A stretch of DNA of 63,062 nucleotides, filler included, from Craspedostauros australis (taxonomy: Eukaryota): the NCBI GenBank assembly GCA_030167865.1. It is 13 parts of 13 records of this genome, joined end to end, with 100 filler letters (N's around TTAATTAATTAA, not from the genome) between each part and the next. Parts side by side here need not be neighbours in the genome. Positions count along the whole stretch, not along the records: positions 61,276 to 63,062 come from JALAGF010003152.1; 12 more parts are not named here. One strand, 5' to 3'. Made by a program: the position numbers and the translations under genes. Below, in pieces: positions 15,570 to 63,062 of this stretch (within the stretch, counting starts at the first letter, position 1; every line of letters starts with the position of its first letter). Under the pieces are notes generated by a model that was not told where the DNA came from, did not search any database, and worked only from the letters and a program-made list of their open reading frames with translations.

Positions 15570-15669
15570 NNNNNNNNNNNNNNNNNNNNNNNNNNNNNNN
15601 NNNNNNNNNNNNNTTAATTAATTAANNNNNNNNNNNNNNNNNNNNNNNNNNNNNNNNNNNNNNNNNNNN

Positions 15670-19099: not shown

Positions 19100-19591
19100 A
19101 ACACATATGTTTGCGCCGCTTGTGCGTAGAGCATAAGAGAACAATGGGTGAGCGATGCACATACACATATGTACATTCCAACAGGCAAGGCAGCAATNAC
19201 AGGGCACANNTTCANGGCTACTCTGGCTGNTANGGATTTCTGGCTGTTCATTGCTGTCACAACCATGGAGAACAAGACCATCTATGGCGCTGACATTTAC
19301 AATGCATTTGCTGAGGCTTCTTGTGGTGCACAGAAGTACTACATGCATGTTGACAGCCCCTTTGCTGACTGGTGGCAGTTGTAGGGACACGCACCCATTC
19401 CGTGCGGCTGCATGACTCTCATCAGCAAGAATCCTCAGGGTCATTCCTGAGCACTATGGCAGTGGGCAGTGCACATCAATGCACAGCTGNNNNNNNNNNN
19501 NNNNNNNNNNNNNNNNNNNNNNNNNNNNNNNNNTTAATTAATTAANNNNNNNNNNNNNNNNNNNNNNNNNNNNNNNNNNNNNNNNNNNNGT

Positions 19592-33494: not shown

Positions 33495-36400
33495 ATGACG
33501 ACAATGGCCAGCAGCGCAAGCGACCAGCAAATAGCCGCCCTGCCACGTTCAGAGTCAGCCCCCTACAGAAGGCAAGACACACCCGATGCCATGGGCGACG
33601 CTTGTTCGTTCATCTCGGGTGGCGGCGCAGGGAAAACTGCACTCGCCGATGATACAGAGAGCACAGGCACGCATCAAGAACAGCGGGACAGATCGGCGAC
33701 GTATGGCTCGTCCGATGATCCGGTCAAGATGGAGACTGATATGCTGCGCTGCTCCAAGCTCCTCTTTCTCTTCGTCCTTGGGCTTGCGGCAGTGGCGATA
33801 TTCGGGGTTGTTCTCGTCATCATACAGCAAAACGATCAAGATGAATTCGAAACGAGGGTAAGTTCATATACCAGTGGCCTGGCTGTCCTCTTGTACGTGA
33901 ATTCAGGTTCACAGAGTCGGCACGGTGGCTACCGCAACACCGAAACACGTGAGGCTCACGCATGCACTGCAATGATCTGCAACTATTTTGATCACACGAC
34001 TGTTCTATCGACCGACTGTATTCGTAATCGTCTATCACCGTGAAACCAAACAACAATCTTCGTGATGAACACGCTGACGCGACGCAATTACAGTTCCACA
34101 TACTCGCTGAACATGTGGTGGAATTGTCGAGTATGAATGCGCGGGCTGTTGTGGGTTCGTTGGAAAGCGTGAGTTTCACCTTTGCTTCATATGCCAGCAT
34201 CAACAGTCGCAGCAACAGCAACAACAACGGCGCCAGCGCCAGCGGCGAGAAGGAAGACCTCGATGCCACGTGGCCGCTCCTTCATATTCCAAACTTCGAG
34301 GCGCACTACGAGCAGCTTCGACGAGCGACCGGTACCGAGATGCTCACCCTTACACCCCTCGTGACTGCGGACACCAAGTCGGCATTCGAAGATTTCCAAA
34401 ACGAAAACGGCGACTGGATTGAAGAGAGCTTGCGCTATGCGCAGCACGAGCAGTCCAACCTCACGATCATTCCACGGGTATGGGAGATCGCTGTGGATGA
34501 CACATCCAACGCCCCTGCCATCATGTATCCTCAAAACGAAACAATGTATGCACCGATATCGCAGCTTGCCCCGATCCAACCCTTTGGTCGATCTATCGTC
34601 AACATAGATACTCTGCGCGACAGCAACTTGGCATCACTTTTCAAGACCGTCCGGCAACGAAGAAGACCCATCCTATCCAACGCGTTGCATACCGACCTTA
34701 CGGTACCGATATCATCGCACAACAACGAGGCTGACTGCCCGTTCAGCTTCGTCGCGGTGCCAGTCTACGCTACGCTGACACCAAACCCAGCTATGGGTGC
34801 TGCAACCGGTGATCTGAACATGGCGGACGAACCTGAGTTTGTGGGAACCGTAAATGCGAAGATCCCATGGAGCAGATACTTTGAACACGTCACCTCCGAC
34901 CACGTAGATGATGTTGACGTCGCCGTTGTGATCGTCATCCAGAACACGTGCGGTGAAGACTTCACGTTCCGGATCGGAGAGTCTCAGCTTGAGTATGTCG
35001 GACTTGGCGATAAGCACAATGAAGACTTCGACGATTTTGAGGTGCAGTGGGACTTCTCAGTGATAGAAAGCGTCCACAACTGCTCGTATTCGATGAGCAT
35101 CTACCCAGCCACCGAACCACAAGAGGTCTACACGTCGAAGACAGTGGTATACACCGCTCTCATCGTTGTGGCGATCTTTCTCCTGATGGGCGTCTTCTTC
35201 TTCATGTACGATCGGCTCGTCCAGCACCGTCAGCGCAAGGTGCTCGAGTCAGCAGCCAAATCCAACTCTATCGTCCGAGCTTTGTTCCCCGCCAACGTCC
35301 GCGGCAGGCTGCTGGGGAACAGCCTCGCGCAACCGCAGGAAGACCAAGTGAAAAGAACAAGCAAAAGCAACCTTGATCTGAAGGACGACGCAGAGCGCGT
35401 CAGCCCCCTGGAAGATGACGCCATCAAGGTCCCAAGATCACGTCGCCGGCGCAGCGTCAAGAGCATTGGTTCTCGCGCATCCGACGCTTCCACGGGCAAC
35501 CTCGAGCCGTTTTCATCGGGACCCATCGCAGACTTCTTCCCCAGCGTCACCGTGCTGTTTGCTGACCTCGCGGGCTTCACCGCGTGGTCCAGCACGCGCG
35601 ATCCAGTGCAGGTCTTCACCTTGCTGGAGACGATCTACAACGCCTTCGATCGAATCGCCAACAGGCTGGATGTGTTCAAGGTCGAGACCATCGGCGACTG
35701 CTACGTGGCTGCCTGCGGTCTCCCAGAACCACGAGACGACCACGCAGTGGTTCTGTTCCGATTCTGCAGGCTTGCGCTGGCCAAGACGAAGGACCTCATC
35801 GAGAAGCTATCGCTCTCCCTGGGCCCAGACACAGGATCGTTGGCAATCCGCTTTGGGCTCCACTCCGGACCTGTCACGGCGGGAGTCCTGCGAGGGCAGA
35901 AGTCCCGTTTCCAACTGTTCGGAGACACGGTCAACACTGCAAGCCGCATTGAGAACAGCGGTCGACCCAACCGCATCCATCTGTCTCAGGAGACGGCGAA
36001 CGAGCTGAAAAAGCATGGCAAGGCGGCATGGTTCAAGCCAAGGGATGATGCCGTGATTGCCAAGGGCAAAGGCAGCCTCGTGACCTACTGGGGCATCCAC
36101 AAGGCTGACGGCATTGGCAGCGGTTCTGTCGCATCGTCAAAGAAGAAGCGAGATTCGGCTCACAACACCTCTCACAGTACCGCTATGAATCAGAGCGCGC
36201 ATTTCAGCGACTCCGGTTCCTTGGATTCGTTCGCCGGCCACCAAATGCCCGCTGTGCAACCAAAGCAGCCGCAGCTGCAAATGGAACCGCACATTATGTC
36301 ACTGGAAGCCCTGCGACAGCTCAAGGAAAGCCAACCGAGGGTGATCAATGCAAGGCTTGTCGCCAGCAAGGACATCGCGGAGATCAAGAAGATCGCATCA

Positions 36401-37951
36401 AAGTCAAAACAAAGAAAGCAGACTACGGAACGCCACATCATGTGGAGCGTGGTAACGTTCAAGCAAATGCTACGAATGATCATTGCCACCCGAGATCTGG
36501 AGGGAGATTCGCTGGATGATTCGTACTCCTCTTTCTCCGTGTCCACGTCGTCGTCGGTGTCGTCAGCATCATCGTCGTCGGTGCCATTGTGCGCAGAGAT
36601 GACTGAGCCGCTGTCGACGTCCATCGCGTCGTTGAAGAAAGGCACCGCGTTGGATGAACTTGCGGATGCTCTCACGATGCCCACGAAGAAGGTGCTGTTC
36701 TATACCGACCCCAACAAGATCGACCTGCCGCCGACCGTTGAAAGGCAGATCGAAGAATTCGTCCAGACGATTGCAAACTGCTACCGGTTCAATTCGTTCC
36801 ATTCCTTCACGCATGCTAGTCATGTGATTCAGTCCGTCCAGAAACTACTTTCAAGGATAACCAAGCCAACCGACGAGGAGGAGGATCTCAGCATGAGCGT
36901 CGAGAGCCACGGTGAAAACGACGTTGATCCCAACGACTTCGTCTACTCCATCCGATGCGATCCGCTGACTCGGTTTGCGTGTATCTTCGCCGCGCTCATC
37001 CACGACGTCGATCACATGGGGGTTCCTAACACGGTGTTGGTGGAGAAGAATCACCCAATGGCCGCCTTGTACAAAGGCAGGGCCGTTGCCGAGCAGAACT
37101 CGATCGACTTGGCCTGGAACCTCCTTTTCGAACCTCGATTCAACGAGTTCCGACAATGCTTGCTTTCCACCGAGCAGGAGCTGCGCACGTTCCGAAGCCT
37201 AGTGGTGCAGTCGGTTATCGCCACGGATATCATGGACAAGGATCTGAAGAAGGTTCGTACTGAGCGATGGCAGAAGGCATTCGCGCCGACCTTTGCGCCG
37301 ACCTTTGCACCATGTGTCTCTCCATCGCAGGCATCGACGGCGCTTGAAACGAAGTCTTCCTCGTCGGCGGACCCATCGACGTCAGCAACACCTTCGGCAG
37401 TGCCCAGGTCCATCTCAACGACAGTCTCAGCTTTGGGGTTGCCCGTCACTACCATCTCCACCGTCGCGGCCGATAAGCGCGATGCGAGCAACAGCAGTGA
37501 CACTGCAAGGATCGACAGCAACTCCGATGGCGATCACCTCCACTTGGACTGCCACCAGCATCATCATCATCATCGAAAGAACAGCGAAAGGCAGTACCGG
37601 AACAACCTGAAGGCGACATTGGTGCTCGAGCACTTGATTCAGGCCTCGGACATCGCACACACGATGCAGCACTGGCACATCTACATCAAATGGAACGAAG
37701 CTCTGTTCGATGAGCTGTACAAGGCACACCAAGACGAGAAGAGCTCGAAGGATCCGTCGGAAGGATGGTACGAGGGGGAGATTGGATTCTTCGACTTTTA
37801 CGTCATCCCTCTGGCCAAGAAATTGAAGGACTGCGGCGTGTTTGGGGTCTCGTCGGACGAGTACTTGAACTACGCCATTGCCAACCGGAATGAGTGGGAG
37901 CACAAAGGAGAAGACATCGTGAAACGATACTTGAAGAAGTATAACCCATAG
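33495..37951 (+). CDS. Receptor-type class III nucleotidyl cyclase / cyclic-nucleotide phosphodiesterase fusion (exons 33495-33857, 34094-37951)
   Basis: Phase-0 intron GTAAGT...GCTGAC...CAG. Two TMs flank an extracellular domain. Cyclase motifs: VLFADLAGFT, KVETIGDCY, RFGLHSGPV, FQLFGDTVNTASRIE. PDE motifs: FHSFTHASHV, IHDVDHMG, QASDIAH. Confidence 0.92.
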
Positions 37952-39916
37952 GTGCATGCCTACGAGTGCGAGCAGAGAAGGGTCAGAAGCTGGCCTCGCG
38001 AGATCTTTTCACAGGGGAATGAGAGAGGACACGAAGCCTTGATAGAGAATGCGCGATACAGACAGAGAGAGAGAGAGCAATCGGGAGTGCGCAGAGAGAC
38101 TGCTTGGCTATTCTATAACATTTTTGACATTGTATACATTACTTTGCTTTTCTCCGCCCGTACGAATACGTACGTGGCCCAAATGTTTCCTCTACGGGCA
38201 CGAGCAGCTCGCACACAGAGAAGCATGTCCACAGCACCAGCAGCTTCAAGGAGGTTGTGAATGGTCTTCACCCATCCTTGGATCTTTGGTGCTTACAAGT
38301 AGAAGCATCATGTTCTTGAGTTCCTATCTTGGCTCGTGCTTCACAGGGTGTGATTGCGATGCCAAGGATAGCGTGCTTTGTATAATGTCTACCACCATTC
38401 CCTCGCAGAGTAAAACGCGATCCTTTCCGCACATCTACAACCTCCATTGTGCGTACCTCTACGACTATGGCAGTAAGATGAGAAGCAGGTGCAAACATGG
38501 CAGATCTCGTTGGTGGCGCAGAGGGATGAGAAAGTTGGGAATGTGCGACCTGCAAGCGGCACATCACGGGTGTCGATCCGTGGCAAAGAGAGCACAGCGA
38601 TACATCCCTGTTCCGGAGCGTCGGAGTGCTGGACCCACCAGCTTCACTTCCTCGTCCACTCTGCGACGTGACGTTGTGGGGACGCGTCGTGTAGCGACAA
38701 GGATGCGGCCGCTCCAGAGTAACGCGGTACAGCATAATAGTTCGTAGATTCGATTGGTACAGTGTCTTGCGAGTGAACATGACTGTCGCAGATGGAGCGC
38801 TTCTGTCTCCGCCCCCACGCTGTTGGCGCAAGGGCGAGGCGACATACGGACGAATTGTTCGATTCCCTTTGCTATTTCTTGTGGCGACAGAATTTTGTTG
38901 GGCACGTAATCCGGACACGAAGAACATGAAGCAAGCCGCACATTTCAGAAACTCAATTAAGGGCCATTCACTCGTGAACCGCATTGATGTCAGAATGGAC
39001 ATTTGTGCACGCAGGTTCTCACTTTTTCCCAAATTGTCTCCGGCGCAAAAAGGGTAAGACGCTCGATGATGATGGCACGTTTTGTCTCCCACAGAATGGA
39101 GGTGTTTGCGTGGCTCATAATTTCATAACTGGCGAGGCTGGCGCGCCCCTATCCCGAGTCACGGTCCTAGTCCCGTTAACCGTATCGACTCAATGGATCG
39201 ATATGAGTCGTGTATACTATCCACGTTTCGATCTGGATCTTGCTCTTTTTGTGCAATCGTGCTCTTTACGGTTGTACAGCCTCCAAGTCTTGATATGCTT
39301 GCCTAACTGCTTCGGATGTTCCTTCATATGCTTCCGACTTGCTGGTGTGCCATGTACGCCAGGGTGGCTTTTGATCGTCTATGCATTGCATCTTCCATAC
39401 ATTATTGGTCTTCTTCCTGAATATGCATAGTGCGGATGCGTTGGAGATACTTCAAGACAATTGCAGTCACATCAATATGTTGAATCTGCGACGTGCCAGA
39501 TCACATCAACACAGGGTCACTGATTGTTGATTGACAGGAAGAGCCTTGATGGATGGCTTCAAGACAGCGGCAAGTTGGGTGAAGGACTCCCTAGTCATAC
39601 CAACGAAGTTGTAGAACTCCATAGCATCACCATGTTTGAGAATGCTTGCCAGAAGGTACTAGTGTCACAAGAGAAATTCCAAGCTCTAGTAGTGGCCTCT
39701 GTGCAAAGCAGTAGGCAAGCCGCTGTGGAGGTAGTCAGCGACAGCAAACATGAGAAGATGCTGCTGTNNNNNNNNNNNNNNNNNNNNNNNNNNNNNNNNN
39801 NNNNNNNNNNNTTAATTAATTAANNNNNNNNNNNNNNNNNNNNNNNNNNNNNNNNNNNNNNNNNNNNAACCAATACCCTATTCTACCTACTCTGACTCAA
39901 GCATCCGATCTTCATC

Positions 39917-41288: not shown

Positions 41289-41842
41289 GCTGTCAACCTT
41301 TGCGCACCTTGTCGATGCGAAAGCCATACTCGCGAATGGCCATGTCGGCATCAAACTTAAAACACCATCATGTAGTCGGTACTTAATTCATGGAAGTGAA
41401 CGATCATCGATCTACCCAGAGATCTCATTCATACCTGTACTTGCACTTGCATTTGTACTTGTGAGAGTTGTTGATCGAGGTCATGGTGCAAGCGGAGAGA
41501 GTCCGTGCCGCTTGGTGGAAACACTCGTCGATCGTACCATATCCATGGTGAGTTTTTTCCTTCCTTTGAAGGAAGCTTTCCTAGTGCACCTTCCTTCAAA
41601 GGAAGATCGGAGGGGTCAGNNNNNNNNNNNNNNNNNNNNNNNNNNNNNNNNNNNNNNNNNNNNTTAATTAATTAANNNNNNNNNNNNNNNNNNNNNNNNN
41701 NNNNNNNNNNNNNNNNNNNCCATTTCCCTCCCCCAGCTTCCTCACTACCACCCAGAAGACTACAGTCACTTCAATGCTTCATCAATGCTCTACTCCTGAG
41801 GTTTGAAATGATGGTGTCATATATATCCATGGAGAATTTTTT

Positions 41843-41929: not shown

Positions 41930-44149
41930 ATAAACTCAACGCGGAGAATTAACACGGAGCNAAAAATGTTCTGACCCACTCGAATACTCGCCGAAAAAAT
42001 CATTCAATGTCGTCATTTGTCGCCTGTGCTTTTGAACAAGTACTGTGTGTTTTACCGTGTTGTTTTGTACTGATGGATGCAAATCTTATCTGCGCTCCAC
42101 ATCCAGCAACATTAGTATCGAAACAACTCTCTCAATGTTGCAATGCATACACTAGTGATGCTATGTGTTGTAAATTGCATTCGTTGCCTCTTGCATACTC
42201 TCCTGCTTGCGTAGAGGAGGAAAGGAGTTAGATGTGTTCTTATCAGGCTCCGTCGTCCTCCTTGCTGTTTTGAACCTACCATTCTCCTTGCAAGCTTTCC
42301 TGCCTATGTTTGCTACTTCTGTGTTCAAAGCATGCCTCCAGTCACCCATCAGTTCTGTGTTATCTGTTGTGCTGGTTGGGGTACATAGGTTATGCCTTCT
42401 GCACGACGATTCGCCTCCGTATATTGATCATCAACCACTTGTTTGTCACGCAAGTACAAGGCTCTCGTTCATTCCGTATCGCTTCAAATCAAAAGGGATG
42501 ATCCTTCATTTGTCCTCACACTTGTGCTTACCAGATTTGGACTTCCAACACTCAGCGCATCCCCACCGCAAAACAGGATCTCACCCAAGAGTTTGCACCA
42601 ATGAAGACATGGATGTTCTTCCTTTGCGGAGTTCAGTTCCAAGACCACATGAGGCATACATACAAGAGAAGCATATCATGTTTGCCGGTATGTGCATCCG
42701 CACCATTGTCAAGTGATCTCCCTTTTGTCGACAGAAACTGATGCGTGGGAAGGCATCTGCATTCTTGGCGGCCATATTTGTTGCCAGAATCTGGGTGAAT
42801 CCGATTGCCATCCTGCTGTCACACATGTTCATCTTCTTATTCACATTAATAAGAACAATAATAACTCACTGAATGACCTCCGTGTACAAAGTTACCTTGG
42901 AGACTTTAGTGTTGGCCACCTACAATGAGCCTAAGGCCGATTGCGCTGAAATGACTTCCCTGTGTCTCTCACTACCTATCCTACCACAGTTTGTCAGCAC
43001 CATGGGCCATCAAACATACCACACTGGGCATCCGGCTTGCGCCTGCTATGCTCTTTCACTAATATCATGCACTGATCCGTGCTCCGCGCCGTTGCTTGTT
43101 CGCCCTTCCTCCAACGCCCCGTATAACCGTCGTTTGCACAGACCCGTTTCTTGTCGTTGCCCTCTAACCGCGTCTGTGAGTCCTTGGCTTACTCCTCTTC
43201 TCTCTTGCATCGTCGCACGTTGTTTCTGCCTGACCGTCTGGGCAGTTATCCACACTGCTTGCACATGCTTCACCCACCGGCTCTGAGCATCCACTGGTCA
43301 CCTCACCACCTCCACTCTCACTACGTTCGTCATGAGAGCTTGGTCTGTGGCCAGGATACCTCCACCTCCGATTGCCCATTGCTTGTTCACCCTGGCTCAT
43401 ACTTCTTTTTCCTGGGCTGCCGCGCGCTTGCGTTCNNNNNNNNNNNNNNNNNNNNNNNNNNNNNNNNNNNNNNNNNNNNTTAATTAATTAANNNNNNNNN
43501 NNNNNNNNNNNNNNNNNNNNNNNNNNNNNNNNNNNCTGTGGCAGCCGAGGTGCCTCCATCAGCATCTGTCATCATACGGAAGTACGTATGCCAACAAGCG
43601 AGTTTGCAAAAGCTGAACAAAACAAAGCCAACTAAAAATACGCAAAAATACTAACTTCGACCAATTCGCGCAGTCATTATTTGTATTTTGGCACATTTCT
43701 GACAGCTGCATTATCCAAAACATAAGAAAATTAACAATTATGAGCGCTTTCGAACACCCGATGTGACGTCACGACACAGAATTGCGGGAAGACATCCACG
43801 AACAGAGGGGAGGGACAGAACGCATCGATGATAAAAACCTGTCGGATCGACACACAGAATGGTATCGCATTCTGCTGTCGTGGTACCTGGCACTGTCAGA
43901 GACCAGTGGCGAGGAGGTGAGTTTCGAAGGAAGGAAGATTCACTAAAAACAGGCAGTTTGGTTACCGCAACCCCCACTTTTGATGACGTCGTTGGTGTCT
44001 CAACACATGTCGCAAAAAAGATAAGTGGAAATCATTTCGGAACGGAGGAATAGGTTAAAACCATAGTGATAGTGAAAAGTGACATGTTCTCGAGAACTCT
44101 CAAAGAACTTGATGAAAGTCCCGCATTCGTATGCTACGTCTGGCGACAT

Positions 44150-45271
44150 TCAAATTGGTTTGTTCTTCTCTGGAGAATGCGGCTCCTTGGCCAGAACGAG
44201 GCCAGGAACTCTGCCGCCCAAGAGGTAGCTCGCCGACATGGTGATGCAAAATGGCAGGGTCAAGCACGGCGCGCCCACGGCACCGAACATCGTCTTGAAG
44301 GCACCGAACAGACCCGCCGTCGCTGCGGCGCCACCCGCGCTCAGCACCATGGTGGCTGGGGAATGGCAGAAGAAGACTGCCGTGCCCATGCTCGTGAGGC
44401 AGGAATTGAATCCCCACAATCCCATCGCCACCTCGGATGCATCGGCGCCGCACAGCAGGAATCCCACCAACGACCCCACCGTGCTGCCCATGACCGCGTG
44501 CATTGCCAGCTTGGGCGAGTAATCGGCGATGACGTACGTGAGGATGGCACCCGTCATGGACGATTCGACGACGAAGATCTGGCTGATGCCCTTGAGGGGT
44601 GATAGCAGAAGGCCTGCGAACGACGTGGTCGCAACGGCAGCATCTGCGGTTGCCGACAAGGGTTGCGTCCGCAACAAGTTGGTCAGCGTGACAAAGTTGA
44701 AGGCCAGCGTCCACTGCGGGACCTTCATGGTGGACAACGCCACCGCGCAGAACGGCGTCGCCGCAGCCCCGATGACCGTGAACGTGGTGGCGGCCAGGAG
44801 GGAAGACGGGCCGAAGACGGAGGCGGCGCAGCCCACCAAGCAACCGTTGTATCCCATCAGCCCATTCGCGATGGCGGTTTTATCCAGCCCAGATCGTGTC
44901 GCCGTCTCGTTCGCCGTGACGGTCCCCAGAGCCGCGAGCATCGCCAAGGATGGATCGCCGACCGCCAACCCGAGCAGAATTCCGGCACCGCAATGCGGCG
45001 AATTCAAGAAGATGACCTGGCCGACGCCGCGGGCGTGGGCATCGATCTGAGGTGGGAATTTGAGCTCGTCATCTTCCTTTTGTGGGTTTGGGGTCGAGGA
45101 AGTGAAGGCTCTTGCGATGCTTCGTGGGTTGAGCTGAGATGACGACGAGGAAAACGACGACGGCACCAACAACCGACGGTGAGATGGCTGCTGCCCTACT
45201 CGTCCAATTCCGCGGATCACGGCGCGGCTTGGCCTCATACTCGTAGCATGACGGAGAGACGAAGCGATCAT
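44150..45271 (-). CDS. Urea transporter (UT/SLC14 family) with probable mitochondrial presequence
   Basis: Duplicated UT signatures RGVGQVIFLNSP / KGISQIFVVES and GLMGYNGCL / GLWGFNSCL; TLAF/TLPF. N-terminal ~60 aa is Arg/Ser-rich with no acidic residues. Confidence 0.9.
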   Translation of the reverse strand: MIASSLRHATSMRPSRAVIRGIGRVGQQPSHRRLLVPSSFSSSSSQLNPRSIARAFTSSTPNPQKEDDELKFPPQIDAHARGVGQVIFLNSPHCGAGILLGLAVGDPSLAMLAALGTVTANETATRSGLDKTAIANGLMGYNGCLVGCAASVFGPSSLLAATTFTVIGAAATPFCAVALSTMKVPQWTLAFNFVTLTNLLRTQPLSATADAAVATTSFAGLLLSPLKGISQIFVVESSMTGAILTYVIADYSPKLAMHAVMGSTVGSLVGFLLCGADASEVAMGLWGFNSCLTSMGTAVFFCHSPATMVLSAGGAAATAGLFGAFKTMFGAVGAPCLTLPFCITMSASYLLGGRVPGLVLAKEPHSPEKNKPI

Positions 45272-45649
45272 TCTGTTTTCTGTCGGATTGTCCTTCTTTG
45301 TCTGTTACCCGGATTATGTCTTCAGCAGAGTGCTGTGCAGGTGTTGTGGAGGACACACCTGATGAATGAAGTTGATGTGTCGAGTTTGCGCTCTCCCATT
45401 CGCCCAGGAGTACGAGTACGAGTATAAGTAGTATGTCCTCGTGCTTGTAGTCCCTCCGACAACGGGAGCCAAGAGGAGACGTCTGCGGATTGCGGAGTAG
45501 GGATCGCACCGAACAAAGAACAGATGAGGTGCTCGGTGTCTGTCTTCCCATTCATTTGTGGGAACGACGTCGAGACAAAAAATATCTTTCGCGATTTGAT
45601 GTTCTTGTCTCATCCATACTCTATCAAATGAGAATAGAACAAGGATGGC

Positions 45650-50151: not shown

Positions 50152-50251
50152 NNNNNNNNNNNNNNNNNNNNNNNNNNNNNNNNNNNNNNNNNNNNTTAAT
50201 TAATTAANNNNNNNNNNNNNNNNNNNNNNNNNNNNNNNNNNNNNNNNNNNN

Positions 50252-51566: not shown

Positions 51567-51666
51567 NNNNNNNNNNNNNNNNNNNNNNNNNNNNNNNNNN
51601 NNNNNNNNNNTTAATTAATTAANNNNNNNNNNNNNNNNNNNNNNNNNNNNNNNNNNNNNNNNNNNN

Positions 51667-53377
51667 CACACACACACACACTACTCGTATCGTCTCCCGA
51701 TCATCACAGGTTATGAGGAAATACGCTTATACTATATAAGACAATCCCCATTGCTTCGTCACCCTCTCTGTATTTTGGAAATCCCCATCCAAACGCAGCT
51801 CATCTCATCTCTCTCTTTGCTCCACGCCTCGTTCCATCACCGCCATCATGCCCGCCAGTGACAACCCCAACAAAACTCCGTTCCACGACACAGAGGAACT
51901 CTTCCGTCGCCTCAATTGGACGTGGCTCGCTGACTTCTCCAAGCATTCCAAAATCGCCTCTGACGGTGAATTCGCTGACTTCCTCGATACCTCTGAAGAG
52001 GAGTTCGAGGCTGTCTTGGACGGCTGGAAGTCTGGCTCCATCACTCGTTGTTTCGGGCTCCGCAATCTTCGCGCGTACGCGGAAGCGAACCCTGATTTTG
52101 ACGCGTGGTTCACCACACTGGAACGCCCCGTGCTCCGTGCATTCGGCAAGGCCAAAAAGCCTCCCGCTATTCGCGACAAGCTTCCCCCTGAAGCCCATGG
52201 TGCCTCTGGAGCCCTTGCGTCGGGTGGTACCACCGATGATGCCCATTCCTCCGAACGTGGTGATACATCTACACCCCGCGGTGACGTGCCAGTCGCAACC
52301 GCCGGTCGTGGTGTTGACACCAGCGATGCCCCTCTTGATGTTGGTGAAGAACCAGCGCCTGCCGTCGACTTCATCACCGGCTCTGGCCTTACCTACGCCA
52401 TGGCCCGCAACAACCCTGCAGTCCTCCCTCATTTCCACTTCAAGGAGGTTCCCATGGTCACAGAGCCCTCGTATGCCGCCATTGGATACTGGCAGCGCTG
52501 GGAGCTGAAGCTTGCTGGGGACGCGCCCGCTGGAGTACTCAAGTGGTACACACAACTCCAAGCCGAGGCTGCTGGTGTGGACATCCACATCTGTCCGCTT
52601 TCCGCGTTCAGTCCGCAGTGCTCCATCATTCCGCGCAACGCTCCACGTGAACGTGTCATCCGTGCCGGCGAGTGGCTGAACAAGAAGTTGCAACAGAAGG
52701 ACATCCTCGATCTGGACGACCCTGCCATCTCCCTATTCTATTCTGGGACTTTCGGCATGTCGCCACACCATCTGTCATCCTTCCTTTTCCTTCATCAAGT
52801 GCTCTCGGACGCATACATGCGTGTTGCCAACACCGTGAGCCAAGCGCCTGAGTATGGCGATTCGCAAGACGTCATCAAGTTCGCCACGGCGTTGTTGGAA
52901 TTCCAACAAACCGAGAGCGTCGTTCACCGTCGCACGATCACTGATGTGGAGCTATCCCGCCGATTCCTCGAAGGTCTTCGCTCTCACCACATGCCTGTGG
53001 AACACCACATCACGTCTCTGTCCCTGGTGCCAGGCAACAAGCGCGTGCCCCCTCACCTACACGTGTCGGCTCTTGCCCGTACCATCAGAGGAGATCCCAC
53101 TGCCTCAACGTCCAATATTGGCCACCGTGTGCAAACACGTTCGTCTGGGAAGTCTGGTGGCGATGGCAAGCGTGGCGAGCGCAAGCGGTCCGAGTTTTAT
53201 CAACCGGACAAGGATGCATTCTGCTCCGCGTGCCACCGCAAGGGACATCATGCGCGCAGCTGCCTTCCATGGGCACGCGATCTGCGTTTCGCTGAGCTCC
53301 GCGAGTCCGAACCTGACCTTGCTGCGAAGGTTCTCAAGACGTACAAGGAGGTCTACTCCAGCGAGCGTGCAAGCACA
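51667..53377 (+). mobile_element. Ty1/copia 5' end related to the 13.6-15.6 kb element (LTR end at 51708, PBS 51709-51728, gag)
   Basis: CA-rich LTR tail ...TCATCACA followed by GGTTATGAG...ACGCTT, then gag. Confidence 0.78.
51848..53377 (+). CDS. Gag-like protein with CCHC zinc knuckle (3' truncated)
   Basis: CSACHRKGHHARSC fits CX2CX4HX4C. Homologous to the ORF at 13924. Confidence 0.8.
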
Positions 53378-54827
53378 NNNNNNNNNNNNNNNNNNNNNNN
53401 NNNNNNNNNNNNNNNNNNNNNTTAATTAATTAANNNNNNNNNNNNNNNNNNNNNNNNNNNNNNNNNNNNNNNNNNNNTCAATCAGTACACCTCTCTTGAA
53501 CTGCATCACACGGCTATCCCGAAGCTGGCAGATCCAAGAGACATCTTCCACCGATTCGCGCTGACTACGCCCGAATCCTAACTATTTTTCTGTTTCGGGA
53601 TTGCTTTCTACAGCTGTTGATTTGCTTTGTGTCTGACAGTCGCTGTCTGCGCCTTCCGTGTGGTTCTGGCCCTCGCAGGTTGGCAGACTCTGTCGTTGTC
53701 TTCGCCATTCTTCCAGAAGACTTTTGTGCCGTCCGTCAGGCTGCGCTGGTTTGTGGTGGCGTTCATTTTTTNNNNNNNNNNNNNGTCGGTTGGCTGGGTC
53801 TACGCCTTCAGGCAGACAAAATCAATGCCGTCGACTTGCAATCGGTCGCCGCATTTCGGGTTTGATGATGGCAAGCCAAATCGATCTTCGCTTTGATCGC
53901 GTCCCATCGTCATCTCTCTGTTCTTCTGTGTATGTAGCACCCTTCTTCGTTCTTGTATTGCTATGATGCTCGCCCATTTTGGTTCCCTTCATTAATCATC
54001 CTGCTCCTCTTCGGTTGCCTTTCATCGATTCACACCATCACCCCCTCAGCCTGTCGATCAGCAGTTCTGTGAGACGTCTTCGTTCGTCGCTGTATCCTTC
54101 ACAGGCATCATAGGTGCGATCTTGTTCCCACACATGCACCCCCATGACAATGCAGTCACCCTTGTGCTAGTCATCTCGCCACTGTTTCTGCCTCTCCCCT
54201 TTTTCTCTGGGTGTGGCTGTCGAGCCCAGCGTGCCATCTGCATGCATCATTCGTTTCACCTCGCCGTATACGACTTCTTGTATCCTCGGTTGCAGCCAAT
54301 TCCCACAGCAACTCTACTATAGTGTGTACAACGATTCCTACACGAAAATAGCTTCACCAGTCCCATGCACTTCGCTCGCGCGCTCCCTTTCTTGGATCTG
54401 TTGCACTGGTCTGGTCCAAAGCAACACTTGTCAAGCAGCCAGATTGGCTTCCTCCTTGGTGCCTCTGTATTCCTGGGTCCGCACGATGTGAAATCACACC
54501 TCCAATATAGTAGCAGTGGCTCATTCAGCATACGCAGTCTCACAGAATCTCGGCATCATTTCTGGAGACATCGTTGGCAACTACGACTGTGTGGACACAA
54601 TGCACCATGCACATACACTCCTCTGCAATTCTGTGTTGGTTCACAGAAACATGTGTGCTCATTGCCCAAGCATACCATTGCATTGTTGTGTCGTATCAGT
54701 TTTTGGGGTCACCATTCCAGCGCCTCCATGCATCCCCTCGTGCTATCCAAAAGGCAAGACACACCACTACAACACCAAGGGCTGTGAATTAAACCTGTAC
54801 TCTATGAACCAATGTGTTATCTATGCA

Positions 54828-55232: not shown

Positions 55233-55765
55233 NNNNNNNNNNNNNNNNNNNNNNNNNNNNNNNNNNNNNNNNNNNNTTAATTAATTAANNNNNNNNNNNN
55301 NNNNNNNNNNNNNNNNNNNNNNNNNNNNNNNNATAACGCGGCGCATCACGACGAATGCAAACAGAATGATGATGATGATCACGGTCGTTCACACGAGAGA
55401 TGCTGCTGACCCTGCATCTTGCAATCAGTCCAGAACAACATCTCATCCTCATCTCATAATTCTAGAGTTCAATACAAACTCACCAACCAAACAGTAAACC
55501 AACTAATCGACAACTAACGATAACAATTACCTCCAAACCAGAGCCCACGATCTCACCACTGCCTACGCCGGTCTAATCAGTGCTGACATCTGGACACAAT
55601 ACCACACGCTTCCTCTGCGCAACGTCAAGGCAAACCACCTTAACCAAGCGCTACTACGGACCCTCAAGACGAACAACCAACGGCAAAGACACCATTTCGT
55701 CCCACGGCTCCAACGACAAGCAACGGTACCTGTTCACTGACTGGAAAACCCATCTGTCAGCAGCA

Positions 55766-57448
55766 ATGACGGGAACCATCACGACACGCTCGCAGACGAG
55801 CCAAGCCAACCAGGCGGCACAGCAGGCCGCCGGCCTCTCGGCGATGGCCAACCCAGCCAACAGCGAACCCCTCCAGGGCGAAGTGCCAACCGCACGCAAG
55901 CCAACGCCCAAACCAAGCAACGACGCCATCCCGACCAGCCAGGTGCAGAACCAACCTCAAGGCCAGTACTACGTCCCGCCCCTCCAAGAAGGCGGAACAG
56001 GCGCCGAAGGCCCTCGTCAAACCAATCGAGTGCCGACCCCGCAACCACGCGGCGGATTCCAGTTCCCGACCAGCGCAGACGGCGGCGGAGGCGGCGGTGA
56101 CAACGGCGGCGGCGGCGGCGGCGACGATGGAGGAGGCTACGGCGACGACATCGATCTGGACGCGCCGGACGATGACTTCTCCGACTTCGGCCCAGCGGAC
56201 GGTGGCCTTGGCGTCGGAGGAGCTGGACCCCCGGCGTTCCAATACGCACTGACTCCGGCGCGCATCCACAACACCCTGCTGAACTACAACATCCCGTCGG
56301 TGGCGAAGATGTACTACAAGGCTGTCCAACCCCTCCCTGTGGAGTTCAACATGACCTCGAACCTGGTGCACAAGTTCACGCACGCGATCAACGCTCGTGG
56401 AATGGAGTTCAATTGGCTACCAACGGTGAAGATCTTCATCCGAGGACGCATGCGCAACCTTTTCTTCGAACACAGCACGATTCGCTACGACGAGATTCGG
56501 AAGTACGCCGTGCGGTACTCGCTCAAAGCCACCCGACACGCCCAGATCGCGATGCAGATCGGTCGGTGCATTCAAGACTCTCTGACCCAGGACGCCAGAT
56601 CCCGGTTGCAGCTGGAGTCACAGCGGTACACAATGACCACCGTTGAAGGGGTGGTGCACGACGGACTCCTGATGTTCAAGGTACTCATGGAGAAGTCGCT
56701 GGTCAACACCAACGCGACCGTCAGCATGCTTCGCAGCAACCTGGCCAACCTGCCAACGAAGATCGGCGAGCTCTCCGACAACATCACGGAACTCAATGAG
56801 TACGCCAAGCATCAGCGCAGCGAGCTGAACGCCCGTGGGCAAGTCACCCACGATCTCTTGGTCTACCTCTTCGAAGCCTACAAGCAGGTGAACGACGAAG
56901 CCTTCCGCCGGTACATCGAAAGCAAGGAAGACCAGCACCACGAAGGAGAAGCTCTCAGCGCAGACTCGCTCATGGATCTCGTCGAGAAGAAGTTCAAGAC
57001 GATGATGGAGCGCGGCACCTGGAAGGCGCAGACCGACGACCAGAAGCACATCGTGGCCCTCACGGCCGAGATCGAGCGCATCAAGAAGAACCGAAACGGG
57101 AACAAAGGAAAAGAGAAGAAGGGCAAGCCAGAGAAAGAAGGCAAGGGCAAGAAGGGCAAGGACAAGGACAAGGACGGCAAGAAGGCTGGATCCGGAGACA
57201 CTCCGTGGTTCTACCAACCGCCGGCCAACGGAGCGTCCAAGTCCAAAAAGGACCCGAGCGGAAAGGACGTCCACTGGTGCCCGAATCACGGAACCAACGG
57301 AAAATGGGTCCGACACAAGCCATCCGAGTGCAAGGCCATCAATGGAGGGGCCAACAAGGGTGGGCAATCCGGCAAAGCCGGAGGAGACGGTGCTTCAGGA
57401 AACAAGCCCCAGGTGGCCATGCCACATGTGGTCGAAGAGGAGTACTGA
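55766..57448 (+). CDS. Gag protein with a variant (C-H-H-C) knuckle
   Basis: DGLLMFKVLM, LNARG..THDLLVYLFEAY...FRRYIE, a Lys-rich tract, and HWCPNH...WVRHKPSEC. Ends in TGA. Confidence 0.82.
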   Translation: MTGTITTRSQTSQANQAAQQAAGLSAMANPANSEPLQGEVPTARKPTPKPSNDAIPTSQVQNQPQGQYYVPPLQEGGTGAEGPRQTNRVPTPQPRGGFQFPTSADGGGGGGDNGGGGGGDDGGGYGDDIDLDAPDDDFSDFGPADGGLGVGGAGPPAFQYALTPARIHNTLLNYNIPSVAKMYYKAVQPLPVEFNMTSNLVHKFTHAINARGMEFNWLPTVKIFIRGRMRNLFFEHSTIRYDEIRKYAVRYSLKATRHAQIAMQIGRCIQDSLTQDARSRLQLESQRYTMTTVEGVVHDGLLMFKVLMEKSLVNTNATVSMLRSNLANLPTKIGELSDNITELNEYAKHQRSELNARGQVTHDLLVYLFEAYKQVNDEAFRRYIESKEDQHHEGEALSADSLMDLVEKKFKTMMERGTWKAQTDDQKHIVALTAEIERIKKNRNGNKGKEKKGKPEKEGKGKKGKDKDKDGKKAGSGDTPWFYQPPANGASKSKKDPSGKDVHWCPNHGTNGKWVRHKPSECKAINGGANKGGQSGKAGGDGASGNKPQVAMPHVVEEEY

Positions 57449-58576
57449 ATCACAGGCCGGAGGGTGTGGGCATTTGTGTTCACCCTCTGCAGGCCATTCA
57501 TCGTGGCGTTACTGGCTACACTCTGCATCAGCGCAATCGCATGTGGGGATGAGGAGTCAGTGACGACCGTGGTGGTGGTCGCCCTGGTAACTTGGGTCGC
57601 TCAGCGCATCGCGCTGATCCAACGAGACTCTCGCAAACATACCAGATGGCGATCAAGCCACACGAAGTGCCGACGCTTCTACGCGCGTGGCACCAGAACC
57701 AGACCACCCAGGATCGGATCCAAGGACGGCAGACCCTCACGGAGAATGCTGCATCTTTGGACAATCGCCGACCAGGAGCAGCAGCACGCGCACACCATGC
57801 CGCTTGCCAGATTCGATTCAGATTCATTCGAGATGGCAGTGGACAACTGTGCCACGACCTCCTTCACGAACAACAAGGAGGACTTCATCGGAGATCCAAT
57901 CAAGATTGACAAGGTGGTGAAAGGAGTGGGAACGCGGAAAGTGCATCTGCAAGGCAAGGTGGAATGGCGAATCGAAGACGACAACGGGAATCGGCACGTC
58001 ATCGAGCTGGACGGGGTCATCTACGAACCTGGCCTACCGTTTCAACTGCTCTGCCCACAGCACTGGGCGCAATGCAGCAAGGATCCAGAAGGTACAGGAT
58101 GCACCACCCTTGGGAATCGCATGGAGATATTCTGGGACCGACGAAGACACCAGAGGTCGATACCTCTCACATCCTCCAACATTGGGATGATCCGGACAGC
58201 AACCGGATACAGCGGAGTTCGCAAATTCTGCATGGCTACCGAAGTCCCCATATCCACGCCAGACAACCAACTGGACGCGACCCACCTGGTGAGCGACGAC
58301 GAAGAGTCAGTGGTGATGGACGACGACGAAGGCAGCGTCAATCAGAGCGAACAAGCCATTGACACCAGCGGAGCCGAAGACGACCTCAGCAAGGAGCCAA
58401 CGCGAATCGACTTCCGGGACATCCCCTACCGAGCGCCCATCGACCATGCATCCGAGTTCAGCACCACTCCAACCGCGGACATGCTCTGGCTGCACTACAA
58501 GCTGGGACACGTCTCATTCAACAAGATGCGGACCATGGCTTCCAAGGGAGAGATCCCAGCGAAGTTCAGGGACTGT
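57449..58576 (+). CDS. Pol N-terminal part (hydrophobic segment, protease, integrase Zn-finger start), in frame with gag
   Basis: FDSDSFEMAVDNCATTSF, LLCPQHWAQ and LWLHYKLGHVSF...FRDC. Separated from gag by a single TGA. Confidence 0.85.
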
Positions 58577-60112
58577 NNNNNNNNNNNNNNNNNNNNNNNN
58601 NNNNNNNNNNNNNNNNNNNNTTAATTAATTAANNNNNNNNNNNNNNNNNNNNNNNNNNNNNNNNNNNNNNNNNNNNGTCCCAGTGCCTCGTGAAGAGGGG
58701 CGGAGAGGTCTGCTTGGTAGACATGTTGGCAGCAATCAAAGCAGACAAGTTTCTGCGAACACAATGTGGTCGTTTTCCACCCAGTGTTGAACAGCAAAAT
58801 GTCGAATGGCGCCGTGGCGTGTGCGACGCGAGGGCTGCTGTGCGTTGGCCATCATGAGCGCAATTCAGTTGTTCTCGTACAGCACCGTACCACATCGCTG
58901 AAGTACACCAAGCTTGCCAAGGATGCAACGAATGCATAATGTCATGCGACCAGCATCGGAAGCACAGAGAAGTTCAGCCTCTGTGCTGGACATGGCAACC
59001 GTGATCTGCACTCTCGGTTTCCATGCGATGGCAGCAGCAGCAAGATGGAAAACAATGGACGACACTAACTGTTGTTGCTGAGTGTCCATGGTCCAATCAC
59101 TGTCAGCATACCTTTAGAGGAAATTGGGTTGTTCTGCTGGATGGCCAAATACATCATCATGTGCTGGCATTTGCTTGGCTGGAACAGGCATGGGCGGTAG
59201 TGCAGGGACAGCGTCAGTGCAATGTAGCGCGATGCCTTGAGCGGGAGTGCGGAAGAGATATCAAGAAACCTGCTTGGCGACAGCGAAATGATCTATGGCC
59301 AGCCTTGCCAAGAATTGCAAGAGTTTCACGATGGGAAAAGCGATGGCTGGCCTACAGGTAATCATGGGACAGATGAGTTTGCCAACAGCCTCACAATAGC
59401 ATTTAATGTCTGCCTGTGCCTGCTTGAGGCCACATGCATCCAAGGCTTCAGAATCGTCCAGCTTGCGTATGTGCGCATTGCCATCATCCATTGGAGTGAG
59501 CACACCATTCATCTTCTTCTGCTCATTCCATTGAAAACCTTGTTGAGATGTGTACTATTGTGGATGGAGACATGTGTGGCAGTTTGGATCAGATCTGCAC
59601 CAATGAAGTGTTGGAGAACGCTGAATCATTTCATGGGAATGAACAGGAACGAATCCAAGCTCATCGCAGATTGTGGAGCAAGCCGCTACATCACTGCATG
59701 CAATGGCAAAGTTATCAACCTGATGTAGAAAGAGCATGTTGTGTTCTTTGGAAGCGCCGCGGTATAGGCATAGAGCATGCGTGGTGGGCCTGAAACCCAT
59801 GCGCTGCAGCTGTGCTTCGATGTGCACCGCCCACTGCCATAGTGCTCGGGAATGACCCTGAAGATTCTTGCTGATGAGAGTCATGCAGCCACACGGAATG
59901 GGTACGCGTCCCTATGACTGCCACCAGTCAGCAAAGGGGCTGTCAACATGCATAAAGTACTTCTGTGCACCACAAGAAGCCTCAGCAAATGCATTGTAAA
60001 TGTCAGCGCCATAGATGGTCTTGTTCTCCATGGTTGTGACAGTGATGAACAGCCAGAAATCTGTAGCATCCAGAGTAGCCATGAATGTGTGCCCTGTGAT
60101 TGCTGCCTTGCC

Positions 60113-60961
60113 TTTTGGAATGTACATATGTGTATGTGCATCGCTCACCCATTGTTCTCTTATGCTCTACGCACAAGCGGCGCAAACATTTGTGTCGTGA
60201 GTGATCTGTGATTGATCTGTGAGCGATCTGTGAGTGATCTGTGAGTGATCTGTGAGTGATCTGTGGTTGATCTGTGATTGATCGAAATCACACCACAACA
60301 TTGGGCACACACACAAAATCAGAATTTCGGAAGGACATTTGTGAACAATCATTTCTGAGAGCATCAGGAATGCAGTCTGTCCATCAACTGACAGAAATGC
60401 ATGACATCGAGCAAGGATTGATGTATTTCACAACTAAACCTCAAATGATGATATCCTTGCCATACCATGGCATCATCGATGGAATATGGAATCTGAAGGA
60501 TCATGGAAGACGACAGCTGACATCAACAGTATGTCATCATATCACCACATCAACATCTGTCTCCACATCAGTTCAAGAAGGCGAAGATTCAATGACCAAG
60601 TGACATCAAGATCGTGGATATGCAAGGAAGAGTTCAGATGAGACATTGGCGAATACTCACAGAGTAGTGCACCAGTAGAGGACGAAATGATGGAGTATGT
60701 ATCAAATACAGAGCATGTATCTAACACTGATTATCGCACAGTACCAACACATGAGAGAGAAAGAGCGAGAGAATACAAGAAATAGCAAGAGAGCATCTCA
60801 CATGCCAACTCATAGTCAGACGATAGTTGAGAGACACCAAGAGTATTGGGAGACTCTGAGAGGCATCGGAACAACGCAATGAAATAGCAAGAAAAATAGT
60901 AACAACCACCACCACCACCGTCAACAGTCGCAAGAGTATCCATGAGCGAAACTTGCCAATA
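60113..60961 (+). mobile_element. Solo LTR family A
   Basis: T(T)TTGGAA...CTTGCCAATA flanked by TGCC repeats. Homologous to 47665-48490 and 17634-19183. Confidence 0.8.
60197..60284. repeat. 11-bp tandem repeat (GTGAGTGATCT), 8 copies
   Basis: Directly visible inside LTR A. Confidence 0.92.
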
Positions 60962-61293
60962 TGCCACATTGCCCAGGGTCCACACCTCATGTTCGCTGCT
61001 ATCCATGAGATATGAATGGCTCAGTCTGGATCGCCACTACGGAATGCAATGAGCACGATGTCCAGGGGCGATGTCGAAGACATGTAGCTGCTCTTGGCCG
61101 TTCATGCTGTTCCAGGTGATGTCAGCAGGTGGATGGTTGCCAGATGACAACATGTCGATGTCAAACGCCGTATTGNNNNNNNNNNNNNNNNNNNNNNNNN
61201 NNNNNNNNNNNNNNNNNNNTTAATTAATTAANNNNNNNNNNNNNNNNNNNNNNNNNNNNNNNNNNNNNNNNNNNNTGTGCCCGTCTTTGATTG

Positions 61294-62691
61294 TCAAGAA
61301 CCGGCGTTCCATGGTCCTTGGGTGCCGGGTCGTCCGGTCTTGTGATCGCCCGTGCGAGGTCGCTTGGGCCCTCGCTGGGTCAGTGGCAACTCGAGGTTGC
61401 GCGCATAGTCTGCTGGCTTGTTGCGCTTGAGGGTTTCCTCATCAATGGGTTTCCCGGTGGTGCGGAAGTGACGAGACGCTTCGACGAGGAGCACTTGAGT
61501 GCTCACCGGCATGCGACGGAAGACGGAGTCCGGCAACCGAAACGATGCGGCGCCCTTGCGATCCCACTTGGAGGATTCGCGTGGCCTCTTGCGGTCGTCC
61601 TTGGTGTCCTTCTGCTGGTAGCGACGGTTGCGCTTGGGAGAGTAGTGTCCTTCCGATTTCGTAAGGAGTGCGTCATGTTGCATGAACGCCTCGCGAATTG
61701 CGTTGAAGGAGTGTTCCGTGTTGCGGAATCTGGACATCTCGCTTGTGAAGCGATCGTCAGTGATGTTGCGAAAGAACTTCGCGATCTTCTGCTGGTCGGT
61801 CATTTGCTTTCCATTCTGCTCCATGACACGGATGCATTTGGAGAAAGCGTTGACGAAGAATGGGAAGGGCTCTGATCCGTCGTAACGGAGCTCAGCAATC
61901 TTCTGTTCTTCCTCAGCGATGGCCTCAGCTTTGTGATCGACGGACTCGTAGTTACGCACGAGTGCCTGGTACGCGTCGTGGCCGTTCGGTTCGTGTGCTT
62001 CCACGATGAATGCCGCACATCCCTTCTCTGTCTTGGTGTGCAGGACAGTGTAGAGCTGCGCGTCGATGTCCTCTGCGAAATGTGATGGCTTGTCGACATC
62101 GAGGTACGCGGCGTATCTGGATGTGACCAGCTGTCGCTTGAATGCGATCTTCCAGTCATACCAGTCGCTGTTGTTCCCGGTGAATTCGGGTGCCTCCGGC
62201 ATGCTGATCTTGTCGAACTTCCATCCTGATGGAGTCCGTGGTGTTCGTGGTGATCGCGGGGTGCGTCGCGCGCGGCTCGGTGAGCTGACGGTGATTTCGC
62301 GACCCGCGGTTCCAGTAGCATCCGCTGCTGCGGCTGCCTCCCTGATCGCCATCTCCGATCGCACTTGAGCAGCGGCGTTCGCAACTGGCGTGTTGACCTC
62401 TGGTGGTTCGTAGTTGTTCGCTTCGTTGAACAAGTCGATCGCTGCCCAATCCGTGCGTGCGGTGATGGTGTTGGATCGCGCGTACGCGAAGATGCGGAGG
62501 ATGTTGGTGATGTTGATTGATGACAGCGTTGGCGAGAGCGCCAAAGCCGCCACGATGGTGGCGTCCGAGTTGCGGATGACACGATCGATTCTCCCGAGTT
62601 TCTCGCCGATGAACGCCATCTCTTCGTCATCGAGCTGTACCAGCTCTTGGATGATCTTGTTGAAGGTGTTGATGTTGGTTGGCCGGTCCAT
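61294..62691 (-). CDS. Ty1/copia Gag (UBN2/Retrotran_gag_2-like)
   Basis: PEFTGNNSDWYDWKIAF, QLYTVL, NGHDAYQALVRNYE, LRYDG and QKIAKFFRNITD. 465 aa, ending TGA-CAATCA. Confidence 0.82.
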   Translation of the reverse strand: MDRPTNINTFNKIIQELVQLDDEEMAFIGEKLGRIDRVIRNSDATIVAALALSPTLSSINITNILRIFAYARSNTITARTDWAAIDLFNEANNYEPPEVNTPVANAAAQVRSEMAIREAAAAADATGTAGREITVSSPSRARRTPRSPRTPRTPSGWKFDKISMPEAPEFTGNNSDWYDWKIAFKRQLVTSRYAAYLDVDKPSHFAEDIDAQLYTVLHTKTEKGCAAFIVEAHEPNGHDAYQALVRNYESVDHKAEAIAEEEQKIAELRYDGSEPFPFFVNAFSKCIRVMEQNGKQMTDQQKIAKFFRNITDDRFTSEMSRFRNTEHSFNAIREAFMQHDALLTKSEGHYSPKRNRRYQQKDTKDDRKRPRESSKWDRKGAASFRLPDSVFRRMPVSTQVLLVEASRHFRTTGKPIDEETLKRNKPADYARNLELPLTQRGPKRPRTGDHKTGRPGTQGPWNAGS

Positions 62692-62737
62692 GGTGGTAAC
62701 TCGTAAGATGGTAAAAGGTGGTGTGGTGTTGGGTGTT

Positions 62738-62767
62738 GCTCAGTGTTGGTAAGCACGACTCTTAATC
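62738..62767 (-). promoter_or_regulatory. Primer-binding site complementary to the 5' half of tRNA-Lys(CUU)
   Basis: Immediately follows the LTR end TTTGACA. The plus strand reads GCTCAGTGTTGGTAAGCACGACTCTTAATC, resembling the D and anticodon arms of tRNA-Lys(CUU). Confidence 0.78.
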
Positions 62768-63062
62768 TGTCAAACAGTGCAAGTAACTACGAAANACGTA
62801 TTGGCCCGTTGTTNCGTGCCCTGGTCGGAGCTCTTGTTGTTTATTTGTGAGTGCTGTCCGAAGACAGCCCCCGACCAGTATTTGACTAATAGGATTAGTA
62901 GAAGAGTAAGAAGTAAAGAATTCTGTGAGAATTGTCAATGCACATCAATTACGTACTACAGATTCCGTGCTCTCTTCCCGCACAGCAGGAAGTTGCAAAG
63001 AGGCGGAGCAAGGCGCCTACGGAGCAGATGCCCAGGAGGTAATCTAATCTTTGCATTTTAAT
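62768..63062 (-). mobile_element. 3' part of the 5' LTR of the gag element at 61294-62691
   Basis: Ends ...CTGTTTGACA adjacent to the PBS. Contains AATAAA and a UUCG hairpin on the element strand. Confidence 0.7.

Follow-up and report, generated by a model that had tools for sequence, protein, structure and literature searches.

The stretch of DNA analysed here (the window, 63,062 bases) is composed of 13 contig pieces, whose joints are twelve N44-TTAATTAATTAA-N44 spacers; pieces that are adjacent in it are not necessarily neighbours in the genome. A repeat search of the window returned a 103-nt "repeat family", which turned out to be the joining spacer and was discarded, not being a genuine repeat. 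The site described below is in the last piece (61276-63062), which runs past the window end. On the minus strand of this piece ...CACTGTTTGACA is followed by GATTAAGAGTCGTGCTTACCAACACTGAGC (62767 to 62738), then by a 46-nt C/A-rich leader and an ATG at position 62691, with which a long reading frame begins (Table 1). The tRNA-like string that a preliminary description had placed at 62738-62767 was located correctly: its reverse complement is exactly GATTAAGAGTCGTGCTTACCAACACTGAGC, and ...CACTGTTTGACA precedes it on the minus strand. Past the stop codon of the reading frame the contig continues for only 18 nt before breaking off, with spacer from position 61275.

Table 1. Position, strand and nature of the features of the window.
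Feature	Position	Strand	Remarks
Putative 5′ LTR, 3′ part (R/U5)	62768..63062	-	ends ...CACTGTTTGACA at 62768; cut by window end
RNA hairpin enclosing AAUAAA	62816..62884	-	MFE, z = -6.46
Candidate core primer binding site (PBS) GATTAAGAGTC	62757..62767	-	complementary to tRNA-Lys(CUU) nt 30-40
Interrupted antisense copy of tRNA nt 8-29	62736..62756	-	D arm and start of anticodon stem
Untranslated C/A-rich leader	62692..62735	-	between tRNA-like stretch and gag start
Predicted gag ORF, intact, 465 aa + stop	61294..62691	-	translation; copia type by homology
ACA + exact CAGGTTATG	13783-13795, motif at 13786	+	before ORF 13816-15567
ACA + exact CAGGTTATG	51704-51718, motif at 51707	+	before ORF 51740-53377
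iMet-type site, one mismatch, two extra bases after ACA	42383-42396, motif at 42386	+	
Spacers 1-6	15570-15669, 16826-16925, 19490-19589, 39768-39867, 41620-41719, 43436-43535		N44-TTAATTAATTAA-N44
Spacers 7-12	50152-50251, 51567-51666, 53378-53477, 55233-55332, 58577-58676, 61176-61275		N44-TTAATTAATTAA-N44

Searches with the translated 465-aa ORF gave no direct Pfam match even at E<=10, and a word-based protein search (similar length, E<=1e-3) found no match either. HMMER analysis of 1.84 billion representatives identified 40 homologues at E<=1e-3, all of them stand-alone proteins of 161-587 aa. Alignment with the best of these (P0003, E 1.4e-28) spans the homologue's own gag domain. Retrotran_gag_2, the copia-type gag domain of Pfam, was detected in 24 of the 40 homologues at E<=0.01, and in 8/40 it scored above the 27-bit cut-off; two further homologues matched Retrotrans_gag only and the remaining 14 had no Pfam match. 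Because its homologues carry the copia gag domain, the ORF is predicted by transitive homology to be a copia-type gag. The superfamily was assigned from gag alone, since the contig contains no pol.

Several observations were made on the homologues themselves. A twin of the best one is present in a transcriptome set of marine protists. Another, P0006, was deposited with a Marinobacter metagenome-assembled genome, where it is annotated as hypothetical; it comes from a contig of 1452 nt, which is probably eukaryotic and binned with the bacterium. A metagenome scan with gag gave 114 pattern matches that came down to one locus, and this was rejected as an AT-rich unrelated gene sharing one peptide word.

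The 295 nt visible upstream of the tRNA-like stretch were assigned to an LTR from architecture only, and both the LTR status and the edge at position 62768 are putative. This LTR-like region is present as a single partial copy, no second copy being found within the window, and no ORF of at least 130 aa lies wholly inside it. Neither a 3′ LTR nor a target-site duplication was seen. It does contain a stable predicted RNA hairpin (62816..62884), with an MFE of -27.9 kcal/mol vs -12.6 +/- 2.4 for 200 shuffled sequences, none of which equalled it. The inner stem of the hairpin is capped by UUCG, AAUAAA sits in a side loop, and the outer arms were recovered also in the inverted-repeat search (I1); the structure looks like an R-region poly(A) hairpin. 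Single N bases occur at 62795 and 62814 within the LTR-like region. With draft quality this low, not too much should be read into individual bases of U5.

RNA of positions 62670-62794, covering the candidate PBS and the leader, is unstructured (z = +1.19). The triplet TGG, which marks a site for the 3′ end of a tRNA, is absent from position 62767 to the ATG at 62691. A conventional tRNA 3′-end site is thereby excluded between ACA and the start codon.

The 11 nt that directly follow ACA are complementary to GACTCTTAATC, which in tRNA-Lys(CUU) contains the anticodon CTT, then AA, then TC; these 11 nt cover the anticodon loop together with two nucleotides of each strand of the stem. Comparison by eye showed that human tRNA-Lys(CTT), as printed in PMC8216282, has GACTCTTAATC at nt 30-40. 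For stand-in tRNAs, prokaryotic genomes were scanned with a D-arm/anticodon pattern sufficiently relaxed to admit the spacing found in the window. This yielded at least 120 loci, with 126 matches among those listed, and ARAGORN called tRNA-Lys(ctt) in all five loci that were checked out of these at least 120. In 126/126 matches listed GACTCTTAATC was at nt 30-40, the motif being required by the pattern. Since the 31:39 pair of tRNA-Lys(CUU) varies from one eukaryotic group to another, the host tRNA need not have the 11-mer. No tRNA gene was found in the window itself (ARAGORN, 0 genes; Rfam, 0 at E<=10). Contiguous complementarity to the human and prokaryotic tRNAs compared, from which the host's own may differ, extends over only 11 nt.

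The significance of the core PBS derives from its fixed position. The 11-mer anywhere in the window is not rare, as one match at <=1 mismatch was found vs 0.74 expected, while the chance of the 11-mer at one fixed position beside ACA is ~2e-7 per site. The perfect 11-bp RNA duplex formed by the core is AU-rich, with a predicted energy of -13.7 kcal/mol. A copy of the tRNA would imply C29 and hence G41; the last LTR base would then be unpaired, and complementarity would stop exactly at ACA. The 17-nt string made up of ACA and the PBS was also encountered at two loci of viral contigs, which were rejected as chance matches in apparent phage coding sequence, with no tRNA present.

Likeness to the tRNA continues beyond the core in interrupted form. 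In the best gapped alignment the window resembles canonical tRNA-Lys(CUU) from U8 to C40 with three changes, namely two additional bases in the D loop, one D-stem base (G22) missing, and two anticodon-stem bases missing. Among the prokaryotic matches listed, GCTCAGT is separated from GGTA by 1 nt, and GGTA from GACTCTTAATC by 8 nt, in 126/126 cases, whereas the spacing around GGTA in the window is (3,5) against the canonical (1,8). The length from G10 to C40 is accordingly 30 nt in the window vs the canonical 31 nt, again in 126/126 matches listed.

To judge this likeness, several comparisons with random expectation were made. The window has a single instance of the pattern GCTCAGT-N1-4-GGTA-N0-2-AGC, which was seen in 0/100 shuffles, and the probability of finding the D-arm pattern within nine offsets of the 11-mer is ~4e-7. 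The score obtained when the 21 nt adjoining the core were aligned to tRNA nt 8-29 was reached by 0/200,000 21-mers of the window, and by 15/200,000 sequences obtained by shuffling the same 21 nt (62736..62756). The patterns tested were chosen after the alignment had been viewed, and these probabilities are generous. The D-arm likeness is non-random. Of the "about 30 nt complementary" with small gaps given in the preliminary description, the likeness to nt 8-40 therefore stands, but contiguous pairing is limited to 11 nt.

Duplexes of the site with 5′ halves of bacterial tRNA-Lys(CUU), used as stand-ins, had predicted energies of -36.6 to -43.1 kcal/mol. When the D-arm tail was shuffled, the duplex with the same bacterial stand-ins gave -28.1 +/- 3.5 kcal/mol, and 0/2000 shuffles were as stable. 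The duplex prediction proposed earlier came out positive for these bacterial tRNAs, in that the bulged duplex beats shuffled tails. The greater stability of the bulged duplex favours a stabilising extension; a decaying relic is still compatible with it. Most likely, the D-arm likeness adds bulged helices that stabilise the AU-rich 11-bp core. Alternatively, it may be a remnant of reverse transcriptase copying deep into the primer during plus-strand strong-stop synthesis. That the 33-nt footprint (nt 8-40) is either wholly functional, through the core and two or three bulged helices, or else the record of a reverse transcriptase copy to about nt 8-10, can be put forward only tentatively, and we are inclined to doubt it.

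Sites of initiator-tRNA type are present elsewhere in the window (Table 1). GGTTATG of the ACA/GGTTATG sites complements CATAACC of the initiator tRNA (PMC8216282). Three iMet-type sites had been reported in the preliminary description; two carry an exact CAGGTTATG, but the third has a mismatch and complementarity in all three is only 7-9 nt. The iMet motif at <=1 mismatch was found seven times in the window vs 10.2 expected, which is not above chance, and a human-type iMet 12-mer at <=2 mismatches gave three matches in the window vs 2.93 expected, none of them at a 5′ end. The register of the tRNA-Lys site had been likened to that of the copia iMet site, and it does equal the register of the two exact ACA/GGTTATG sites of the window.

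The ORFs that follow the two exact sites are related to each other, with 33% identity over 555 aa, and neither has a Pfam family. Comparison of the gag family by hhalign with ORF 13816-15567 gave a probability of 0.2%, and with ORF 55577-57445 a probability of 0.1%, indicating no relation in either case. No second copy of the regions preceding the iMet-like sites was found in the window. The proposal that "all four 5′ ends" use internal tRNA fragments is consequently upheld to the extent that two related ORF-bearing contigs share ACA/GGTTATG, but their ORFs are not tied to gag.

Further features were noted on other pieces of the window. An ORF at 44153-45304 (minus strand) encodes a putative urea transporter. 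Of its 346 homologues at E<=1e-20, 120 were listed, and in these all 13 rows that name an organism are diatoms (49-59% identity), which indicates that the host is a diatom with no close relative among those named. In the 1307-aa product of the ORF at 34028-37948 (plus strand) the catalytic domain of a guanylate/adenylate cyclase (E 1.2e-43) is combined with a phosphodiesterase domain of the cyclic-nucleotide type (E 3.6e-28), so that a cyclase-phosphodiesterase fusion is predicted. For an uninterrupted ORF of 2559 aa (21444-29120, plus strand) Pfam gave only a sub-threshold galactose-binding-like match, at 16.9 bits vs the 27-bit cut-off. Copia-type fragments, both on the plus strand, are found at 16013-16639, with a Pol beta-barrel domain (E 1.8e-10), and at 57449-58576, with a weak GAG-pre-integrase match (E 7.8e-4) that is below cut-off. 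Contigs seem to break inside transposons. A tandem array with an 11-nt unit occupies 60186-60294 (plus strand) and includes seven overlapping copies of a 43-nt register (family D2).

We consider it likely that the last piece of the window derives from a Ty1/copia element of a diatom whose primer is a tRNA-Lys(CUU) 5′ fragment with its end at nt 40. The sequence, position and register of the site, the copia-type gag and the lack of any site of the TGG type are the observations from which this reading starts; from them we infer the LTR edge, the sequence of the host tRNA, its cleavage and the actual priming. The minus strand of contig 61276-63062 would hold the 5′ terminal part of an LTR retrotransposon of Ty1/copia type, arranged as R/U5 of a 5′ LTR ending in ACA, PBS, short unstructured leader and intact gag. 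It is this succession of LTR end, tRNA complement, leader and gag, together with the register, that identifies the tRNA complement as a probable primer binding site.

The PBS would be complementary to the inside of tRNA-Lys(CUU) and not to its 3′ CCA end; it would begin at nt 40, the second base in the 3′ strand of the anticodon stem, and run back through the loop. On the model of copia and Ty5, the primer would be a 5′ fragment of the tRNA with its 3′-OH at nt 40, which would anneal there and prime minus-strand synthesis into U5. A PBS for a 5′ fragment of tRNA-Lys(CUU) was what the preliminary description had proposed, and the placement and register of the site fit it, as do the LTR-like ACA end, the copia-type gag and the lack of TGG. 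The further suggestion that stress-cleaved tRNAs supply the primer found no support, the implied 3′ end at nt 40 being in the stem and not in the loop. Stress-induced tRNA halves are cut in the loop and end in a 2′,3′-cyclic phosphate, which makes them unable to prime. For Ty5, the primer has been attributed to RNase P-type cleavage (Ty3 review, PMC5371799).

The same data could be explained in other ways. It is possible, though in our opinion improbable, that the tRNA-like stretch is a passive relic, left when reverse transcriptase once ran deep into the tRNA-Lys serving as primer, or recombined with a copy of a tRNA, and now decaying, so that at most the 11-nt core still works, or nothing does. 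Three indels relative to the spacing of 126/126 matches listed agree with this, as a faithful functional complement would need none, and the likeness begins at about nt 8-10, where base modifications of the tRNA can halt reverse transcriptase. However, a gag that is intact over 465 codons indicates a young copy, and yet the three indels are already present. The core has also remained in the exact register of a PBS, and the advantage of the bulged duplex with stand-in tRNA halves over shuffled tails (0/2000) fits a sequence in use. A domesticated or stand-alone gag-like gene, whose ordinary 5′ UTR resembles tRNA by chance, would account for a window with no LTR pair, pol or second copy, and for homologues that are themselves stand-alone proteins (161-587 aa). 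This is very unlikely given a joint chance of ~1e-13 for the fixed-site 11-mer and the adjoining D-arm pattern, and given the copia gag domain in the homologues; a contig break 18 nt past gag is, moreover, typical of repeats in draft assemblies.

Read along the plus strand, the stretch follows the tRNA in sense orientation from about nt 8 to nt 40 and stops abruptly at TGTCAAACAG, which is what might be expected of a disrupted tRNA-Lys gene, a tRNA pseudogene or an element of tRNA origin in or beside which an LTR element had inserted. But gag is on the tRNA-like side of the ACA edge, which places the stretch inside the element and not in flanking DNA. ARAGORN detected nothing there and neither did Rfam with a threshold as loose as E<=10, the stretch has no recognisable acceptor stem in front of it, and its spacing (3,5) is non-canonical; we therefore give this origin very little credence. 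Self-priming of the Tf1 type, in which the 5′ end of the transcript folds back onto the site, appears the least credible of all: GACTCTTAATC occurs only once in the window, at the site itself, and of the two inverted-repeat pairs detected in 62600-63062 neither involves the PBS. With no inverted repeat pairing with the PBS in the visible 295 nt, self-priming of this kind is without support. Even when the gag-like gene, the broken tRNA gene and self-priming are combined, they make up an improbable set of explanations.

Priming by an internal fragment of tRNA-Lys(CUU), which we prefer, has close parallels in described elements. In the FunCo1 Copia clade of filamentous ascomycetes the PBS, ATTAAGAGTCT, is the complement of a stretch inside tRNA-Lys (Donnart et al. 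2017, PMC5445492). Ten consecutive bases of ATTAAGAGTCT are identical to positions 62757-62766 of the window, so that 10/11 are shared. Both FunCo1 and the element described here belong to the Copia superfamily (the latter by gag alone), whereas the host is a fungus in one case and a diatom in the other. As the PBS motif follows from the tRNA, the shared bases of ATTAAGAGTCT are no proof of kinship with FunCo1. The text of the FunCo1 paper gives no D-arm extension, and its supplements mention neither the motif nor tRNA (PMC5445492).

Half-tRNA priming by initiator tRNA-Met is known for Drosophila copia and yeast Ty5 (cited in PMC5371799 and PMC10886601). With these elements the present one shares the apparent use of an internal 5′ tRNA fragment, a site that starts two bases past the anticodon loop, and the location of this site directly after an LTR ending in ACA, the LTR being putative in our case. 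The difference is that initiator tRNA-Met was shown experimentally to be the copia and Ty5 primer, whereas tRNA-Lys(CUU) is here deduced from sequence. Among plant Ty1/copia lineages, Bianca has a site for half of tRNA-Ile, and Osser and Bryco have one for half of tRNA-Met (Neumann et al. 2019, PMC6317226). Like the diatom element, Bianca and Osser/Bryco have half-tRNA sites within Copia, a non-Met tRNA included, and theirs are lineage-specific; the tRNA and the host kingdom are different. Anticodon-loop sites for Tyr, Ile, Asp, Asn and iMet have been reported in rust-fungus Copia and in Helenus non-autonomous elements (Kojima 2024, PMC10886601), but Lys, to which the element here is assigned, is not among these. 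In view of these reports the premise of novelty in the preliminary description does not hold, both internal tRNA-Lys priming (FunCo1, PMC5445492) and half-tRNA priming by Ile, Tyr, Asp and Asn having been published. Half-tRNA priming by non-initiator tRNAs, including by an internal part of tRNA-Lys in Copia, is thus already in the literature.

Sites that pair with more than one part of a primer tRNA are known from Ty1 and Ty3, whose bipartite or extended PBS includes extra segments of element RNA that pair with further parts of the tRNA (PMC5371799). In Ty1 and Ty3, however, pairing of the core is with the 3′ end of the tRNA, and experiments have mapped the partners, while the putative extension described here is contiguous with its core and bulged. 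In diatoms, CoDi Copia-like elements such as Blackbeard and Surcouf are reported to be activated by stress (Maumus et al. 2009, PMC2806351). They are Copia-type and from diatoms, as is the element here, whose contig has no pol by which it could be placed among them. The main text of the CoDi paper contains no PBS or tRNA analysis; the word "tRNA" does not occur in it, and "PBS" appears there once, meaning the buffer (PMC2806351). A primer assignment for diatom Copia was not found in the literature searched, which is a weak negative, subscription journals and figures having been outside the scope of the search. Nothing usable on tRNA fragments of diatoms came up either.

By the reading preferred here, a diatom joins the hosts in which Copia elements are apparently primed by an internal piece of a tRNA other than the initiator. 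With either interpretation of the extension, diatom Copia would here receive its first primer assignment in the literature searched. The occurrence of the same tRNA-Lys core site in ascomycetes and diatoms, which are very distant, suggests that this primer came into use repeatedly or long ago. LTR finders that seek only sites for the tRNA 3′ end would miss a PBS of this kind. The possible D-arm extension is the sole feature that might teach how half-tRNA primers are held: if the extension is functional, the whole 5′ half of tRNA-Lys(CUU) would be bound, by a kind of extended PBS that has not been described for half-tRNA primers.
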